This document shows, in pieces, positions 24,070-39,496 of a stretch of 55,341 nucleotides of DNA. A program made the position numbers and the translations under genes. Below the pieces are notes generated by a model, which had not been told where the DNA came from, ran no database searches, and saw nothing but the letters and a program-made list of their open reading frames with translations. Source of the DNA: a virus (Duplodnaviria > Caudoviricetes); the IMG/VR virus record IMGVR_UViG_3300032213_001903, positions 1 through 55,341 of that record; one strand, written 5' to 3'. Position 1 is the first letter of the stretch. The number at the start of each line of letters is the position of its first letter.

Positions 24070-25824
24070 TCAAAAATTCAAGAAATCTTTAGCATAGTTA
24101 TATTCACTCCATGTCTCTAGAAATTTTTCTTTATCTGGACAATCTTTCATAGTGTCTTCGACTATACCCCAATTTCTTGCTACTAGACTATGCATATCAG
24201 CCGAGCCAACTAAAATTTTTCCACTCGCACTATCCATAGCGTTTATTCTGTATTTTGAAAAATTTGATATTCTTGTTTCTAAAATAATTTTAAAATCATT
24301 AGTTTCAACTAATCTGTCTATTAATGCTTTTAAATATTTCCAGTTAACATCTATCCAACCCCAAGCCGGCCATTTAGTTCTACTTAACAATGCTCGATAT
24401 AATTGGTCAAACACCATCATTGTCACGATATCTCGTTCACTGGCAGTGCTAGTAGAAAGAACCATTTCAGTCATTATCTCTGGGTCACTCGCATTATAAA
24501 CATCTAGTACTGAGTTTTGTTTTGGCTTCATATCAATGATATCAAATACCACTCCGCTTTCTACTTTGTATTTTTCTTTATAATCTGCATCATATGCTAC
24601 AGGAGCATTGACTAAAATATGAAATGAGTAACTTCTAGGTACAAATCCATTACTATAAATTTCATTTAATGTTTCTAAATATGATTTTAGTGATTGTCCT
24701 GGTAACCCAACTATAATTTCTACATAAATCTTTTTTAATCCATGTGATTCATTATATTTTCTATACATTGAATGCGCAAAGTTTTTCTGATCTTCCCAGC
24801 TTCCTGGTCTGTGTATCGCATCAAGTACATCTTTATTAACATCCTGTGCGCTTAATTTTATCCACCAGCGGGATAATTTATACTTAATGATTAGTTCTAA
24901 TATTTCTTTAGTAGTGTTACTAAAATTTTTGTTTAAGTTATAAAGATAGTATTTAAATTCATGTCCATTTTGATTATGTTCGATTACTCTTTTAGTTATA
25001 GCTAGATCATCTTCCCACATACCAAAATTAGCATCTGCTAGATATAAATTATACATCTGATGTTTGGCCATAAAATCAATATCGTCTAAAAAATTTATTT
25101 TCCTCTTCTGTGTTTTATTACTTTGCCCACCATTCCAATCACAGAATGTACAGTGAAACGGACAACCTCTACTAGTCTCATATATCCAGGCTAGACTAAC
25201 ATTTGGTTTGGTTTTATAAAATTCTATTAATTCTACCACTAAATCTTCACATTCACGATATGGGCTAAAATGAATACCACGAACAAATTCATAGTTGTAT
25301 GATGTTTGAGTAGATTTAATATCATCCTTATTTTTTATGAAATGAACTATGTTTGAATCTTCCGAAGAAATTTGACGGGCGCCAATAAAGTCTAGTGCTA
25401 AACTAGCCCAAGCTTTCTCCCCCTGTCCAATGACATAGTGATCTATAAAAGGATATTTAGTATACCAGTCTTGATTGACAGCATCACAACTTGGTCCTCC
25501 AGCTACTATTTTGATTGAATCCTGAAAGTAGTCTTTAACTGCCTTAATTTGATCAAAAATACTTCTAACATTCCATAAATACAAGCTTACACAGAGTATA
25601 TTTGCATTTTGTTCTTTGATATAACTTATTAATTCTTGGTTTGTAGCAGTATGTATAATACTAGGTGCCCACTGAACCATATCTTTGTACAATGGATAAT
25701 TTACTTTGAAATAACTATGCAAATAATATGGAGTTGGATTTACGAATATATTCTCATTATTTAATGCTGAATAGTTAGCACTGTTACCTGGCGGAGAATA
25801 AAATACAACTTTTATAGTTTTCAT
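24070..25824 (-). CDS. B12-binding radical SAM protein
   Basis: SLYLWN..IVAGGP..GQGE cobalamin-binding domain; ETSRGCPFHCTFCDW; DANFG; GLPGQ. Confidence 0.9.
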   Translation of the reverse strand: MKTIKVVFYSPPGNSANYSALNNENIFVNPTPYYLHSYFKVNYPLYKDMVQWAPSIIHTATNQELISYIKEQNANILCVSLYLWNVRSIFDQIKAVKDYFQDSIKIVAGGPSCDAVNQDWYTKYPFIDHYVIGQGEKAWASLALDFIGARQISSEDSNIVHFIKNKDDIKSTQTSYNYEFVRGIHFSPYRECEDLVVELIEFYKTKPNVSLAWIYETSRGCPFHCTFCDWNGGQSNKTQKRKINFLDDIDFMAKHQMYNLYLADANFGMWEDDLAITKRVIEHNQNGHEFKYYLYNLNKNFSNTTKEILELIIKYKLSRWWIKLSAQDVNKDVLDAIHRPGSWEDQKNFAHSMYRKYNESHGLKKIYVEIIVGLPGQSLKSYLETLNEIYSNGFVPRSYSFHILVNAPVAYDADYKEKYKVESGVVFDIIDMKPKQNSVLDVYNASDPEIMTEMVLSTSTASERDIVTMMVFDQLYRALLSRTKWPAWGWIDVNWKYLKALIDRLVETNDFKIILETRISNFSKYRINAMDSASGKILVGSADMHSLVARNWGIVEDTMKDCPDKEKFLETWSEYNYAKDFLNF

Positions 25825-26315: not shown

Positions 26316-26504
26316 ATGAAAAGGGTTGACAAAAAATATAAAGATGATGTAAGATTCGAAACTTGTGACAAACCAGATTGGTTGAAGAATCATACATTGT
26401 CAGAGGATCAAGTAAAGCATCTGATGTATAACAAATATCAGAGGGCTTTGAAGGATCAGAAAATTCTAGAAAAGATCAAATATCTTGATAGGTTTACTGA
26501 TTAA
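26316..26504 (+). CDS. Hypothetical small protein
   Basis: 62-aa ORF after the attenuator. Confidence 0.45.
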   Translation: MKRVDKKYKDDVRFETCDKPDWLKNHTLSEDQVKHLMYNKYQRALKDQKILEKIKYLDRFTD

Positions 26505-26724
26505 CAGTGTTAAAATGAGGGAACGTGGCCCTCGCAACACACTATAATAAGTTGTAAACGGGCGGACTGCTAGATGAAATGATGGCGATAACATCAGAGT
26601 ACAAACAGCAGGCTAGGGTATAGCTCTAGCATAGCGTAGAAATACGCTATTCACTAGTGTATTGAAGAAAATACGCCCTTAGCCCCTGACGCTAAGACAA
26701 GCATTCAGTACATTAATGAATAGC
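26505..26724 (+). ncRNA. Structured leader/ncRNA region
   Basis: Hairpins GAGGG/CCCTC, TGATG/CATCA, GCTAGG/TCTAGC, ATAGCGTA-GAAA-TACGCTAT, long GCTATTCA..TGAATAGC stalk. Confidence 0.45.
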
Positions 26725-26731
26725 AATTTAT

Positions 26732-26809
26732 TGGGGTATAGCTTAGTTTGGCCTAAAGCAACGGTCTTTGAAATCGTGATCACTGGTTCGAATCCAGTTA
26801 CCTCTGCCA
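26732..26809 (+). tRNA. tRNA-Gln(TTG)
   Basis: Cloverleaf, loop CTTTGAA, TTCGAAT T-loop, CCA. Confidence 0.9.
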
Positions 26810-26814
26810 GTTTT

Positions 26815-26867
26815 AGGATCGGTTCAGCAATTAAAAAAACTTTATATGAAAAAATTAAAAGCGTCCT
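26815..26867 (+). ncRNA. CAGCAA-clamp RNA #1 (short, degenerate; overlaps 5' end of the tRNA-Arg-like gene)
   Basis: AGGATCG-GTT-CAGCAA ... CG-TCCT. Confidence 0.5.
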
Positions 26868-26940
26868 TATACCCTCTGGCTACGAACCAGTTGAAAGGTT
26901 AGTTGGATACATGGAGGTTCGAATCCTCCAGGGCGCGCCA
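26861..26940 (+). tRNA. Atypical 'rewired' tRNA-Arg(ACG)
   Basis: Acceptor GCGTCCT/AGGGCGC+GCCA, normal T-arm, CTGG-CTACGAA-CCAG arm, D-loop-like AGTTGGATA located after the anticodon arm. Confidence 0.7.
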
Positions 26941-26984
26941 AACATAAATATTCAACAACATATATGATGTTACTAAATAAAAAT

Positions 26985-27071
26985 GGAAGATAGATGGCTT
27001 GGAGCCTAACTGGACTTGAAATCCGGTCCACTCAGTGATGGGTGACAGTTCGATTCTGTTATCTTCCTCCA
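26985..27071 (+). tRNA. tRNA-Ser(TGA), tRNA-Sec/allo-tRNA-like
   Basis: GGAAGAT(A)/(T)ATCTTCC acceptor, CTGGA-CTTGAAA-TCCGG, long variable arm, short D-loop. Confidence 0.75.
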
Positions 27072-27078
27072 AACTAAT

Positions 27079-27152
27079 ATCTCGATAGTGTAATGGCAGC
27101 ATACCGGTCTCCAAAACCGTTAGTCTAGGTTCGAGTCCTAGTCGGGATGCCA
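27079..27152 (+). tRNA. tRNA-Trp(CCA)
   Basis: Cloverleaf, loop CTCCAAA, CCA end. Confidence 0.92.
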
Positions 27153-27163
27153 AATATTCATGT

Positions 27164-27238
27164 GCTGATATAACACAGGGGAAGTGTACTTTCTTGGTAA
27201 GAAAGAGGTCACTGGTTCGAATCCAGTTATCAGCACCA
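27164..27238 (+). tRNA. tRNA-Thr(GGT)
   Basis: Cloverleaf, loop TTGGTAA. Confidence 0.92.
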
Positions 27239-27245
27239 AAATTAT

Positions 27246-27321
27246 GTGGGTGTGACCCGAAAGGCTAGGGAACGGATTGCAAATCCGTTTTATGCAGGTT
27301 CGACTCCTGTCATCCACTCCA
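27246..27321 (+). tRNA. tRNA-Cys(GCA)
   Basis: Cloverleaf, loop TTGCAAA, U73. Confidence 0.92.
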
Positions 27322-27328
27322 ATATATT

Positions 27329-27352
27329 GGAAGTATAGCAAAGTGGTAGTGC
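27329..27352 (+). pseudogene. 5' fragment of a tRNA (acceptor strand + D-arm)
   Basis: GGAAGTA-TA-GCA-AAGTGGTAG-TGC, then breaks off before the endonuclease gene. Confidence 0.55.
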
Positions 27353-27384
27353 TTTTATTAAAAAGGCATAAATAATAGAAGAAG

Positions 27385-28062
27385 ATGCACTACCAAATGT
27401 TAACTTGTAAATTTTGTGGTAAAGAATGTAAGAATGAAAACTCATTGAGGAATCATCAAAGATTATGCAAGAGTAATCCTGAACGACAACAGAGTCCTTT
27501 TGAGAAGAAAGAAATTCAAGAAAATAGAAAAAGATCAAATCAATTTTTAAAAGCAAAATCTTTGGGTATTGACTATGTAATTTCAGACGAAACTAGGAAT
27601 AAATTTAAAGAATTAGCTGTTAGAACTTGGACCGATGAAAAGCGTAGGGAACATTCTGAGTGGATGAAAATACAAGCACAACGAAATTTGAATAATCACC
27701 CAGATTCATATCTATCCAAGAATATATTCGGTCGTTCTAAAAAAACACTGTACAAAAATGAATGGATGCATAGTTCATGGGAACTAGAATTTGCGATGTG
27801 GTTGGATTCGATTCAAGTTGAATGGACTAAAAAAGTTCCGTATTTTACTTATGATTGGGATGGCTCGGTTCGTAGATACTTTCCTGATTTCTATTTGAAA
27901 GAATTTGATTTATATGTAGAAATTAAAGGATATCAAACAGATCGTGATCTTGTTAAATGGAAATGTATTCCTAATTTAGCGATAGTTAAAGAAAAAGAAA
28001 TTAAGGCAATTAAAGAAAAAAAGTTTGAATTGTCGCAATTGTTAAATGGTAAGGTACCTTAA
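27385..28062 (+). CDS. Putative homing endonuclease: zinc finger + PD-(D/E)xK (TnsA-like) nuclease
   Basis: CKFC...H..LC; SSWE..FA..LD; YFPDFYL...YVEIKG; 3' end overlaps the next tRNA. Confidence 0.8.
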   Translation: MHYQMLTCKFCGKECKNENSLRNHQRLCKSNPERQQSPFEKKEIQENRKRSNQFLKAKSLGIDYVISDETRNKFKELAVRTWTDEKRREHSEWMKIQAQRNLNNHPDSYLSKNIFGRSKKTLYKNEWMHSSWELEFAMWLDSIQVEWTKKVPYFTYDWDGSVRRYFPDFYLKEFDLYVEIKGYQTDRDLVKWKCIPNLAIVKEKEIKAIKEKKFELSQLLNGKVP

Positions 28063-28223: not shown

Positions 28224-28297
28224 GCCCCTTTAGTTAAAAAGTATAACACTGTGCTGATAACGCAGAGTCGGAGGAGCGTTACCTCCCGGGGGTACCA
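28224..28297 (+). tRNA. tRNA-Ile(GAT)
   Basis: Loop CTGATAA; atypical T-loop AGCGTTA. Confidence 0.85.
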
Positions 28298-28903: not shown

Positions 28904-28978
28904 GGGGGCAGTAGCGGGCTACGGCGATCCCTTGCAAGGATCGTGTCTAGAAGGGTTCAACTCCCTCGGCTTCCACCA
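28904..28978 (+). tRNA. Atypical tRNA-Ala(TGC) with minimal D-arm
   Basis: G3:U70, CGATCC-CTTGCAA-GGATCG, D region GTAG-CGGG-CTAC, ACCA. Confidence 0.7.
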
Positions 28979-30174: not shown

Positions 30175-30735
30175 ATGGCTGTTCTAGCACTAGATATTTC
30201 GGGAGTTCCCCGGCAATGGATTTCGCATGATGATGCAATTACTTACCATGCAAAAAATGCAGTAGCATGGGCATTGGGTGAAGTAGTGGCTAAATATCGC
30301 GGCGGTGTTCAAAATGACGGAGAAATGAGTTATCTAGAAACTTCTAGCATAATTGCTATTAAAGGTCATGGTTTTAACCCACACAAACATGCTACTGTTG
30401 CATTGAGTAATAGAACATTGTTTGGTCGTGATCGTTATATTTGTGCATATTGCGGTGGGCATTTTCCTAATTATCACAATCTAAGCCGTGATCATATTAT
30501 GCCTAAAAGTCGCGGTGGTGAAAACATTTGGACAAATGTGGTAACCGCATGTAAGGATTGTAATGCTAAAAAAGGTCACAAACTTTTAAAAGAATGTAGC
30601 ATGGAATTGCTTTATGTTCCTTATGTGCCAAATCACTATGAAAATATGATTCTACAAAATCGTACAATCCTTGCAGATCAAATGGAATATTTGCTTGCTG
30701 GAGTACCAAAGCATAGTAGAATTTTATTGTCGTAA
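30175..30735 (+). CDS. HNH endonuclease (McrA-like)
   Basis: RDRYICAYCG, DHIMPKSRGG..W.NVVTACKDCN..KG. Confidence 0.9.
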   Translation: MAVLALDISGVPRQWISHDDAITYHAKNAVAWALGEVVAKYRGGVQNDGEMSYLETSSIIAIKGHGFNPHKHATVALSNRTLFGRDRYICAYCGGHFPNYHNLSRDHIMPKSRGGENIWTNVVTACKDCNAKKGHKLLKECSMELLYVPYVPNHYENMILQNRTILADQMEYLLAGVPKHSRILLS

Positions 30736-32548: not shown

Positions 32549-32722
32549 AAATTCAAACATAAACAATATCTGGTATTTTGCTAGTATCTAGAAAATTAAG
32601 ATATTGTTTTATACTTTTGAAGTCGCTAGTAATCATTATTATTTTGTTCTGTTTATTAACAACAGTGTACATTTTGATATGATTATGCCAGGTAACTTCA
32701 ATAGTCATAGACATATTTATAT

Positions 32723-32792
32723 GCGCTGGAATGGTTTACTAGCTGGATTTGAAGCCAGAAGTAGACGGGTTCGATTCCCGTTAGGTGCGCCA
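32723..32792 (+). pseudogene. tRNA remnant lacking the 5' acceptor strand
   Basis: CTGG-ATTTGAAG-CCAG, ACGGG-TTCGATT-CCCGT, TAGGTGC-GCCA without a complementary 5' strand. Confidence 0.6.
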
Positions 32793-32880: not shown

Positions 32881-33091
32881 TTTGTAAGTGTCAGCAAGAG
32901 AAAGTCACGCTATCTAGGTAAGTTCGAACTACCAAAATAGTAGAAGGTGACGGGTTCGACTCCCGGCCGATCGGAAGATCGGTGCAGATTGGTTGCTAAC
33001 TGGACCGGTATCCCAAGTGGCGTATCTTGACCCAGCCGGCTTAATTACATGGGAAAATGGTAGCGATATGAGGGACGCTACTACTTACAAA
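32881..33091 (+). ncRNA. CAGCAA-clamp RNA #5 (~210 nt) with permuted tRNA-like module
   Basis: TTTGTAAGT/ACTTACAAA clamp, GTCAGCAA; CGGG-TTCGACT-CCCG, GCCGATC-GGAA-GATCGGT, GCA-GATTGGT-TGC. Confidence 0.7.
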
Positions 33092-36100: not shown

Positions 36101-36175
36101 GGGCTGTTAGTGATAATGGGAGCACGAGGCCTTTGCACGGCTTAGGTGGGAGTTCGATTCTCCCACGGTCCACCA
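36101..36175 (+). tRNA. tRNA-Ala(TGC)
   Basis: G3:U70, loop TTTGCAC. Confidence 0.92.
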
Positions 36176-36182
36176 AGTATAT

Positions 36183-36258
36183 TGCGGCGTAGAGAAATGG
36201 CATCTCATCGGTCTCATAAGCCGAAGGTAGTTGGTTCGATTCCAACCGTTCGCAACCA
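36183..36258 (+). tRNA. tRNA-Met(CAT), initiator-like
   Basis: TGCGG../..CGCA-ACCA, GAG/CTC D-stem, loop CTCATAA. Confidence 0.85.
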
Positions 36259-37989: not shown

Positions 37990-38046
37990 AGGATGCATTC
38001 AGCAATCTTTAATACTTTTCATAATAGTAAAAAAGCGCATCCTGTT
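37990..38046 (+). ncRNA. CAGCAA-clamp RNA #8 carrying a CAU anticodon-like hairpin, in the 5' leader of the DUF2828-like gene
   Basis: AGGATGC-ATT-CAGCAA ... TACT-T-TTCATAA-T-AGTA ... GCATCCT-GTT. Confidence 0.8.
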
Positions 38047-38074
38047 GCATAACACACATAGAAAGGAGAGTACT

Positions 38075-39496
38075 ATGCAATTCGCCGAAGCAGTAATGAA
38101 CCAAGAAGTCCGTACTACTAATGGTATGAAGGCTCGCAAGTCAACAGCAAACGCCTGTGTTGATTTGTTTTATAACATCGGTGCAAGCCGAGGTAAAAAC
38201 ATCATCCCAGCATTTACTGCGGCATATGTAGAAAACTCTGATCTAGCATTGCGTATCGCCCAATGGGCGCGTGATGCGCGTGGGGGTTCAGGTGAACGAG
38301 AATTGTTCCGACAAATCTTGTCTTACTTGGAAGTAGCTAATCCAACAGACGCTAGCCGTCTATTGGCTAAGGTTCCTGAATTGGGACGCTACGATGACTT
38401 GTTTGTTTTTAAGACTAAGAATCTTAAAACACAGGCATACACTATGTTGGGCGATGCATTGCGTAACCGTAATGGATTGGCTGCAAAGTGGACCCCACGA
38501 AAGGGCGATGTTGCACGAGAAATTCGTGAATTCTTTGGTATGACTCCAAAGCAATATCGTAAGAGCCTTGTTGCATTGACCAATGTCGTTGAAACACAAA
38601 TGTGTGCCAACGATTGGGACAATATCAACTATAGTCATGTACCATCCGTGGCACATGCACGATACAAGAAGGCTTTTGGTCGTCATGGTACAACTTATGC
38701 AGAGTATGTAACCAAGTTGGTTAAGGGTGAAGCTGGTGTTAAAATTAACGCTGGTGCAGTATTCCCTTACGATGTATTGAAGGGTGCTATCAACAAGTAC
38801 AGCCGTAGTTCAATGACTAAGACTGAGTTGGATGCATTGCAAGCTCAATGGGACGCATTGCCGAACTTCATTGGTGATAGTAATGTTTTACCAATGGTTG
38901 ACAGTTCAGGTTCTATGACTTGTGCCGCAGGTGGACCTTCTTCAAAGAGTGGTTTGACTTGTTTGGATGTTGCAATCTCATTGGGATTGTATTTTGCAGA
39001 CAAGAACACTGGTAAGTTCAAGGATACTTTCTTGACTTTCAGTCGCACTCCTAAGTTGGTTAACCTTAAGGGTAATATCAATCAAAAGATTGATCAAATG
39101 AACACTGGTGAAGTTGCTAACACCGACTTGAACAAGGCGTTTGATTTGATCCTTAAGACTGCTGTAGATAACAGTGTGCCTCAAGCAGAAATGCCTGAAA
39201 CTCTTGTGATCTTCAGTGACATGCAGTTTGATCAAGGTGTTGACCATGATGACAGTGCTATCGAAATGATTGCACGAAAGTACAAGCTTGCAGGTTACGA
39301 ACTTCCAAAGGTCGTATTCTGGAACTTGAACGCCGCATACGGCAACAGTCCAGTTAAGTTTAACAAGGCAGGTGTTGCGCTAGTCTCAGGATTTAGCCCA
39401 GCAGTTGCACAAGGTATGCTTAGTGGTAACATGGATGACTTCACCCCAGAAGCAATCATGCTGAAGACCGTTATGAAGGATCGTTATTCAGTTTAA
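38075..39496 (+). CDS. DUF2828-like TROVE/vWA protein (Ro60/Rsr-related RNA-binding protein)
   Basis: T.NG..A, WARDARGGSGER, GRYDD, AAKWTPRKG, VETQMCAN.W..INYS.VPS; vWA MIDAS DSSGS..NTD..SDMQFD; VVFWNL, LVSGFSP; AAAGGAG RBS. Confidence 0.85.
   Translation: MQFAEAVMNQEVRTTNGMKARKSTANACVDLFYNIGASRGKNIIPAFTAAYVENSDLALRIAQWARDARGGSGERELFRQILSYLEVANPTDASRLLAKVPELGRYDDLFVFKTKNLKTQAYTMLGDALRNRNGLAAKWTPRKGDVAREIREFFGMTPKQYRKSLVALTNVVETQMCANDWDNINYSHVPSVAHARYKKAFGRHGTTYAEYVTKLVKGEAGVKINAGAVFPYDVLKGAINKYSRSSMTKTELDALQAQWDALPNFIGDSNVLPMVDSSGSMTCAAGGPSSKSGLTCLDVAISLGLYFADKNTGKFKDTFLTFSRTPKLVNLKGNINQKIDQMNTGEVANTDLNKAFDLILKTAVDNSVPQAEMPETLVIFSDMQFDQGVDHDDSAIEMIARKYKLAGYELPKVVFWNLNAAYGNSPVKFNKAGVALVSGFSPAVAQGMLSGNMDDFTPEAIMLKTVMKDRYSV

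Follow-up and report, generated by a model that had tools for sequence, protein, structure and literature searches.

In this study, we analyzed a stretch of DNA of 55,341 nucleotides (nt) from a virus (Duplodnaviria; Caudoviricetes), positions 1 to 55,341 of the IMG/VR record IMGVR_UViG_3300032213_001903. This 55-kb record, hereafter the window, represents about 16% of a phage genome as estimated by CheckV. Our results suggest that an 80-base gene located at 26861-26940 (+), within an island of transfer RNA (tRNA) genes, is a working elongator tRNA-Arg(ACG) that belongs to a phage-borne class with permuted core connectivity; on the basis of sequence comparisons, we give this reading a probability of roughly 0.72. 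Few features in biology are as conserved as the order of the tRNA arms: the chain of an ordinary tRNA runs from positions 8-9 to the 5' strand of the D-stem, the D-loop, the 3' strand of the D-stem, position 26, the anticodon arm, the variable loop, and finally the T arm. In the gene of the window, the 5' strand of the D-stem and the D-loop are instead found 3' of the anticodon arm. The original prediction, which was made by a model from the letters of this stretch, had described this interior order, and our base-by-base check against the window sequence matched it exactly. The acceptor stem, T-arm and GCCA end, which it had listed as intact, were likewise observed as a stem of 7 base pairs (bp), a 5-bp T stem, and a discriminator G followed by CCA. 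The RNA is 77 nt long plus CCA, which is normal for a tRNA.

The gene was missed by standard tRNA detection. The tRNA island extends over 26.7-36.7 kb and comprises 32 genes according to ARAGORN and 32 according to Rfam, the two lists overlapping. The 32 calls made by ARAGORN for the window do not include 26861-26940, and the RF00005 tRNA model of Rfam gave no match to the gene. Nothing was found there at the gathering level, and the Rfam matches around the gene were limited to tRNA-Sec (19.1 bits, E 0.63) and an antisense plastid element. Neither ARAGORN nor Rfam called a second tRNA with an ACG anticodon anywhere in the window, and the statement that this is the only ACG gene of the island thus holds for the window. 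The other tRNA-Arg genes called in the window have UCG and UCU anticodons. Together, the codons CGU, CGC, and CGA account for 160 of the 289 Arg codons of 19 long open reading frames of the window. It had also been proposed that such a gene could evade tRNA scanners, and this was borne out across its relatives: ARAGORN called 2 of 114 family instances, and most copies in GenBank are unannotated.

We searched for relatives using sequence patterns of varying stringency. A strict first pattern yielded six matches, every one of which was a chance match in coding sequence and was discarded, and a search for related loci based on the neighboring radical-SAM protein returned no relatives. An exact pattern of the T-arm and acceptor 3' part was found in 22 contigs, all of them canonical tRNA-Arg(UCU) genes or att-like copies of the 3' half, which were used for comparison only. 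Canonical viral tRNA-Arg genes that share the T arm of the window gene present the D-loops AGCUGGAUA or AGCAGGAUA, and the D-loop AGCUGGAUA precedes the anticodon arm in canonical viral tRNA-Arg(UCU) genes. A looser pattern then led to the first true relatives, including the close homologues L033/L071. These present an aberrant T-stem/acceptor 3' part (51.5 bits), are possibly decayed, and were excluded from the alignment. Three other relatives (L048, L051, and L061) possess the anticodon CCG; in the 3-bp stem proposed for them, ACC/GGU is replaced by CGG/CCG. The loose pattern also matched L032, L042, L043, L046, L053, L054, L057, and L070, which are ordinary or unclear tRNA-like sequences (at most 25 bits or unscored) and were not retained as members.

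The family alignment was built from a pattern of the architecture itself, which prescribed UAU, C, UGAAA, UA, CAU, and GUUC and was matched by at least 118 contigs of IMG/VR. Matches were filtered with a regular expression requiring at least 6 of 7 pairs in the acceptor stem, 4 of 5 in the anticodon stem, and 4 of 5 in the T stem; pairing of the D-like stem was never demanded. This parsed 114 instances, of which 96 were distinct (alignment A1, 96 rows). The counts reported below for these 96 rows rest on the matches listed, and the rows include related phages. Among the 118 listed IMG/VR loci, 104 parsed, and 13 of the 14 others scored 53-89 bits with model R1, for which the 96 sequences provided the basis; the sole unparsed listed locus without a match to R1 was L134. 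Most relatives possess the linker UGAAA between the anticodon arm and the D-like stem, and other subtypes carry AUC, ACA, UAA, or AGAA.

The D-like stem covaries across the family. Watson-Crick pairing was observed at its three positions (11:39, 12:38, and 13:37) in 95/95, 96/96, and 96/96 rows, respectively, without any G-U pair, and both sides have changed in 48, 31, and 16 rows. In total, the stem occurs as 14 different complementary triplets among the 96 sequences. The original prediction had paired ACC with GGU, had taken the two strands of the D-stem to be swapped in the chain, and had named an absence of covarying homologs as what would refute it. The pairing was confirmed throughout the family, the swap of the strands is supported by these relatives, and covarying homologs were found in large numbers. 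The 96 sequences present 83 different acceptor stems; this helix is 98.7% paired with changes on both sides at all seven pairs, the T stem is 98.5% paired with covariation at four of five pairs, and the four inner pairs of the anticodon stem covary. For the whole structure, the covariation score was 0.913, compared to 0.205 with shuffled partners (none of 500 shuffles reached the observed score) and at most 0.171 with slid partners. RNAalifold returned the same fold from the family alignment when no structure was supplied. Finally, the GG of the relocated D-loop is nearly invariant in the alignment, and the anticodon loop of the window gene, CUACGAA, possesses the 7 nt, the U33, and the purine 37 that a canonical tRNA requires.

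These results refute the idea that the gene is a tRNA-Arg pseudogene, whether decayed or rearranged, or the product of misassembly, with ACC and GGU complementary by chance, and we consider the probability of this scenario to be close to nil. Three base pairs can indeed arise by chance, the single sequence folds at minimum free energy (MFE) into another, long hairpin whose z-score is weak (-1.83), and the aberrant 3' part of L033/L071 shows that a decayed copy may exist among the relatives. Against this, more than 100 homologues were found in unrelated phages with compensatory changes in every helix, and in the family as a whole pairing reaches only 60% and 52% in the two helices specific to the MFE hairpin, so this hairpin was rejected as the conserved fold. 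Model R1 matched the window gene over its full length (1-77) with 90.2 bits (E 2.5e-25) and gave at most 22.5 bits elsewhere in the window, which puts the gene about 68 bits above the canonical tRNAs of the window and far beyond chance, although this match is partly by construction since the window gene is one of the 96 sequences behind R1. Relatives that did not pass the regular-expression filter, and thus contributed nothing to R1, scored 68-89 bits. In addition, a contig of run X5, from a lake metagenome of a different study, covers 26843-26993 without a single difference within the gene, which indicates that the gene is not an assembly artifact. A homologue from run X4 presents eight differences, one of which, G26902A, agrees with the family consensus. 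The stretch was found in freshwater and lake metagenomes from several studies. A related phage from run X5 carries a 770-base insertion at 26838-26843, directly upstream of the gene, and another contig of run X4, likewise from a relative, has 26844-26912 swapped for 86 other letters.

The anticodons of the family are restricted to two groups. The 96 distinct sequences comprise 28 ACG, 20 UCU, 16 UAU, 13 GAU, 8 CCU, 8 CAU, and 3 UCG anticodons; that is, only Arg and Ile/CAU anticodons are present among the matches listed. The other identity positions follow the anticodon. The base after GG is A in 55 of 59 Arg members and U in 33 of 37 Ile/CAU members, and the discriminator is A in all 37 Ile/CAU members and G or A in 52 of 59 Arg members. 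In bacteria, the Arg identity set listed in Table 1 of PMC9976931 is A/G73, A20, C35, and U/G36, and the Ile set of the same table includes A73 and U20 among others. Base 20 and the discriminator of the family agree with these sets as tabulated there, and the window gene has A20, C35, G36, and G73.

We then compared the presence of class members and of canonical tRNAs in the 38 loci that contain 10 or more canonical tRNAs; the UCU, UAU, and CCU members were too few for this comparison. A canonical ACG gene was found in 1 of 12 loci with a non-canonical ACG gene and in 12 of 26 loci without one (Fisher p=0.03), and a canonical GAU gene was found in 1 of 14 loci with a non-canonical GAU gene and in 16 of 24 loci without one (p=0.0005), these p-values being optimistic since the loci are partial (at most 14 kb) and the phages are related. 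Members of the class tend to replace the canonical tRNA of the same anticodon in tRNA-rich loci.

Several observations weigh against a working tRNA with this architecture, the optimism of these p-values among them. The replacement is not strict, since Microbacterium phage Zooman holds both ACG genes, the canonical tRNA-Arg(ACG) preceding the non-canonical one by about 70 nt. The top position of the anticodon stem is unpaired in 85 of 96 rows, and this stem consists of 4 bp and a U-U in 81 of 96. The positions fixed by the search pattern (UAU, C, UGAAA, UA, CAU, and GUUC) lend the tertiary contacts no independent support, and the presence of a U-U adjoining the D-like stem in 95 of 96 rows is partly by construction because UAU was fixed. 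RNA-run contigs give thin and partial cover of the stretch (X15: 85% likeness). Finally, the family fold of the window sequence is -22.6 kcal/mol compared to -26.8 kcal/mol for its MFE fold, and the three D-like pairs appear in the MFE structure of only 12 of the 96 members. The energetic disfavor of the fold is outweighed by covariation.

Part of this evidence would also be expected of a structured, tRNA-like molecule that retains the surface of a tRNA and does not decode, for instance a decoy or sponge for nucleases or toxins that target Arg and Ile tRNAs, a processing signal, or a regulator. Standard tRNA models reject the non-canonical core, most members have an anticodon stem of only 4 bp, Zooman keeps a canonical ACG tRNA beside the non-canonical one, and the occurrence of only two isotypes could reflect which tRNAs certain nucleases attack. 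A decoy, however, would need only some of the identity elements, and in this family the anticodon, base 20, and the discriminator co-vary by isotype like the identity sets of synthetases. Moreover, loci that carry the gene usually lack the canonical tRNA of that anticodon, and the window gene possesses a full 7-bp acceptor stem, a discriminator, and an encoded CCA. We therefore consider a non-decoding role unlikely. The acceptor arm, the T arm, the anticodon loop, and the identity bases mark the gene as a tRNA, but one that departs from the defining order of the cloverleaf.

Relative to an ordinary tRNA, the block formed by the D-stem 5' strand and the D-loop has moved behind the anticodon arm. 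The 3-bp D-like stem with its U-U consequently encloses the anticodon hairpin as a continuous stack, and the GG loop leads directly into the T arm in place of the variable loop. Using canonical numbering, the chain would then run from the acceptor strand 1-7 to U8, A9, strand 22-25, position 26, the anticodon arm 27-43, and the linker, followed by strand 10-13, D-loop 14-21, two bases, a U equivalent to position 48, and the T arm. The U-U formed by the third U of the connector and U26900 is conserved and is probably the equivalent of pair 13:22. The five layers of the anticodon stem, one layer in which C '26' would face the first U of the linker, and the four layers of the D-like stem would add up to a coaxial stack of 10 layers, the same count as in a canonical tRNA. 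Counterparts of U8, A14, G18, G19, the isotype-specific base 20, A21, and the U before the T stem appear to be kept. In such a fold, the T loop would remain within reach of the GG loop, identity base 20 would keep its place at the elbow, the GAAA of the linker might form a GNRA-like turn, and the molecule would presumably reach the usual L-shape. The tRNA would be charged by the arginyl-tRNA synthetase (ArgRS) of the host, and its ACG anticodon would presumably be deaminated to ICG by the host and read the CGU, CGC, and CGA codons of the phage.

This order might have originated if the segment from the D arm to the anticodon arm was duplicated in tandem and the outer copies were then lost. UCU and UAU anticodons are one base apart, which makes a shift from Arg to Ile within one lineage plausible. 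Candidate reasons for the rewiring are an escape from host nucleases or modification enzymes directed at tRNAs, or a frozen accident that spread by descent. Tentatively, we put forward a broader claim that we regard as rather doubtful when all its parts are taken together: that these genes form an undescribed class of translationally active tRNAs in which a second strand topology solves the L-shape; that the class arose in, or spread through, the tRNA islands of phages for Arg and Ile; and that the rewiring was kept because the product is a poor substrate for host nucleases, toxins, or modification enzymes and is nevertheless accepted by ArgRS, isoleucyl-tRNA synthetase (IleRS), EF-Tu, and the ribosome.

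The comparison with canonical tRNA-Arg (ACG/ICG; RF00005) shows how much of the molecule is ordinary. Both share the 7-bp acceptor stem, the discriminator G, the CCA, a 5-bp T stem with a UUCGAAU loop, the anticodon loop CU-ACG-AA, and a D-loop with GG followed by A (A20), and the 3'-terminal 24 nt of the gene occur unchanged in canonical viral tRNA-Arg(UCU) genes. In contrast, the gene presents neither a D hairpin nor a separate variable loop. No canonical D hairpin lies between position 9 and the anticodon arm: the strands flank the arm and the loop comes after it. The D-like stem of the gene is limited to 3 bp and a U-U, and the anticodon stem of the family is mostly 4 bp long. A tRNA-like shape is also reached by a different chain path in YrlA-type Y RNAs (RF02553) and in the tRNA-like structures of plant viruses. 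To our knowledge, these modules lack a decoding anticodon arm together with an open acceptor end that can be aminoacylated, or are located at the 3' end of a viral genome. In YrlA-type Y RNAs, the tRNA-like module is closed at the acceptor end and the RNA ends form a Ro-binding stem. We rejected a YrlA-type Y RNA reading of the gene on two grounds: no match to RF02553 was found with Rfam over 26500-27400 at E values up to 10, and the acceptor end of the gene is open with CCA. Permuted and split tRNA genes are also known in Archaea.

Several other types of unusual tRNAs resemble the gene in part. Mitochondrial tRNAs lacking a D-arm, such as mt-tRNA-Ser(AGY) and the tRNAs of nematodes and mites (PMC7609411), also present a short 5' connector without a D hairpin between the acceptor and the anticodon arm. 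In these tRNAs, a short loop replaces the D-arm and the D-stem and GG are lost, whereas the phage gene keeps both at another position: its D-like stem covaries and its GG is conserved. In addition, the phage gene has a fully canonical T arm and loop and a normal length, and the class is found in phages rather than organelles. The allo-tRNAs and the (8/4) and (9/3) tRNAs mined from metagenomes, some of them located in phage tRNA clusters (Mukai et al., PMC5389517), are likewise natural non-canonical tRNAs of bacteria and phages; their helix lengths are altered (8/4 or 9/3, with a long V-arm) and their arm order is normal, whereas the gene has altered order and normal 7/5 lengths. Permuted tRNA genes, such as those of Cyanidioschyzon merolae (PMC3728597), also depart from the textbook order of segments. 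These are circular permutations of the whole molecule that are processed into canonical tRNAs, whereas the phage gene has an internal block transposed between normal ends, with no evident route of repair. The acceptor ends of a permuted tRNA gene are internal and are joined through a linker that is processed; the acceptor strands of the phage gene are at both ends of the gene and not internal.

We also considered that the transcript might be cut and rejoined so as to restore the ordinary order, as occurs for the permuted tRNA genes of red algae. The existence of such genes elsewhere (PMC3728597) and the presence of a gene for an RNA-binding-type protein (DUF2828/DUF7788) after the island would be compatible with this scenario. 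Two internal cuts and two ligations would be required, however, since the 5' and 3' ends are already normal, and the covarying D-like stem encloses the anticodon hairpin to form one continuous helix in the order that is transcribed. Neither a ligase nor a splicing endonuclease was found in the window. This makes a restoring process very improbable. We did not find a description of the permuted-core architecture in the full-text literature, a search from which subscription journals and supplements were absent, so prior publication is possible; the available parts of PMC7609411, PMC5389517, and PMC13092985 contain no such architecture.

The permuted-core class is widely distributed in phages. 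When the 91-nt region was used as a BLAST query against GenBank phages, the interior core was found with 76-92% identity in dozens of Streptomyces phages, in Microbacterium phages, in Rhodococcus phage Trina, and in an uncultured 462-kb phage. These copies present the same architecture with ACG, UCG, CCU, or GAU anticodons, and the copy of Trina is labelled 'tRNA-OTHER'. An Ile-type query retrieved 86 GenBank records, 82 of them from Streptomyces phages, and a UCU-type query retrieved 11 records, 9 of them from Pseudomonas phages. Overall, the hosts of the cultured phages that carry the class represent four phyla and include Streptomyces, Microbacterium, Rhodococcus, Pseudomonas, and Bacteroides, the phages of the last being crAss-like. 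In the crAss-like Kehishuvirus 'tikkala', a GAU member scoring 84.7 bits occupies a gap in the tRNA array where nothing is annotated. Streptomyces phage Mildred21 (L072/W01) carries four members with GAU, UCG, ACG, and UCU anticodons (Table 1), and its ACG copy is unannotated in its GenBank table. More divergent subtypes with other linkers (44-58 bits) were found in L048/L051, Trina, Pseudomonas phage PA11, and as second copies in Zooman and Mildred21. In Streptomyces phage EGole, a member at 75271-75334 overlaps a feature annotated as 'tRNA-Leu'; its relatives carry an Ile anticodon, and this feature is likely a mis-annotation.

We extended the pattern search to 185,579 prokaryote genomes (one per species). 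Matches were found in 29 places, 23 of which parsed, and most were located on contigs of metagenome-assembled genomes with tRNA islands. One isolate contig of Pedobacter nyackensis (L215) carries a CAU member at 2189-2268. An SPP1-type portal gene precedes it by about 700 nt, a canonical tRNA-Ile(GAU) follows 136 nt later, and this member is probably located in a prophage. The pattern was matched in 1 of 121 genomes of the bacterial family of Pedobacter. Together with the tRNA islands and the portal gene, this indicates that the class is phage-borne and not a trait of a host lineage.

If the permuted-core reading is correct, a natural and abundant class of tRNAs would imply that the cloverleaf order is not required for the set of modules that makes up a tRNA, and it would offer a new scaffold for the engineering of orthogonal tRNAs. 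The class is systematically missed in phage annotations and in counts of phage tRNA repertoires. Its presence in cultured systems such as those of Streptomyces and Bacteroides makes it possible to ask experimentally whether phages alter the architecture of their tRNAs, beyond anticodon loops, against host defenses.

Table 1. Segments of the non-canonical tRNA-Arg(ACG) gene of the window and positions of the class members of Streptomyces phage Mildred21
Feature	Position	Strand	Remarks
Acceptor stem, 5' strand (positions 1-7)	26861-26867	+	Pairs with 26930-26936; one G-U among 7 bp
Connector UAU	26868-26870	+	U8 and A9 as in ordinary tRNA; third U opposite U26900
ACC, D-stem strand (putative equivalent of 23-25)	26871-26873	+	Pairs with 26897-26899; normally 3' of the D-loop, here first
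C between D-like stem and anticodon stem (putative equivalent of 26)	26874	+	From the window sequence
Anticodon arm	26875-26891	+	CUGG/CCAG stem, 4 bp with a U-U on top; 7-nt loop CUACGAA
Anticodon ACG	26882-26884	+	Inside loop CUACGAA
Linker UGAAA	26892-26896	+	From the anticodon stem back to the D-like stem; from the window sequence
GGU+U, D-stem strand (putative equivalent of 10-13)	26897-26900	+	Moved 3' of the anticodon arm; covaries with 26871-26873
D-loop-like AGUUGGAUA	26901-26909	+	Putative equivalents of A14, G15, G18, G19, A20, A21; from the window sequence
Connector CAU into T stem	26910-26912	+	U as putative equivalent of position 48; from the window sequence
T arm	26913-26929	+	5-bp stem, UUCGAAU loop; from the window sequence
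Acceptor stem 3' strand and 3' end	26930-26940	+	Stem 26930-26936, discriminator G 26937, encoded CCA 26938-26940; from the window sequence
Mildred21, Ile GAU	73703-73779		
Mildred21, Arg UCU	86379-86453		Divergent
Mildred21, Arg UCG	91367-91442		
Mildred21, Arg ACG	94857-94933		

Other features of the island also depart from standard tRNA genes. Model R1 yielded weak full-length matches at 32713-32789 (+) (15.6 bits) and 32908-32970 (+) (12.2 bits), neither of which was called by ARAGORN or Rfam; these are possible tRNA-like remnants. A tRNA detected by Rfam at 28224-28294 (+) (41.4 bits) was missed by ARAGORN and presents a GAU (Ile) anticodon loop and an unusual T-loop region. A second tRNA called by Rfam only, with a CAU anticodon, is located at 36184-36254 (+) (51.2 bits). 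Conversely, ARAGORN called a tRNA-Ala(UGC) at 28904-28978 (+), with its anticodon at position 30, for which Rfam gave no match at the gathering level. This sequence possesses a short first hairpin without GG and a CCACCA end, and a canonical Ala(UGC) gene is present at 36101; it may represent another atypical tRNA.

The island is bordered on one side by a gene at 24070-25824 (-) encoding a 584-amino-acid radical-SAM protein with a B12-binding domain, for which we found no PHROG match and no close relative in IMG/VR using peptide patterns. Directly after the island, the gene at 38045-39496 (+) encodes a 483-amino-acid protein with DUF2828 and DUF7788 domains (PHROG 850, 'RNA-binding protein'). 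Two endonuclease genes are located within the island at 27385-28062 (+) and 30175-30735 (+), the second being of the HNH type, and genes for HNH endonucleases or endonuclease VII flank the non-canonical tRNA in several GenBank phages. The presence of endonuclease genes both in the island and beside the GenBank copies suggests that segments of the island are mobile.
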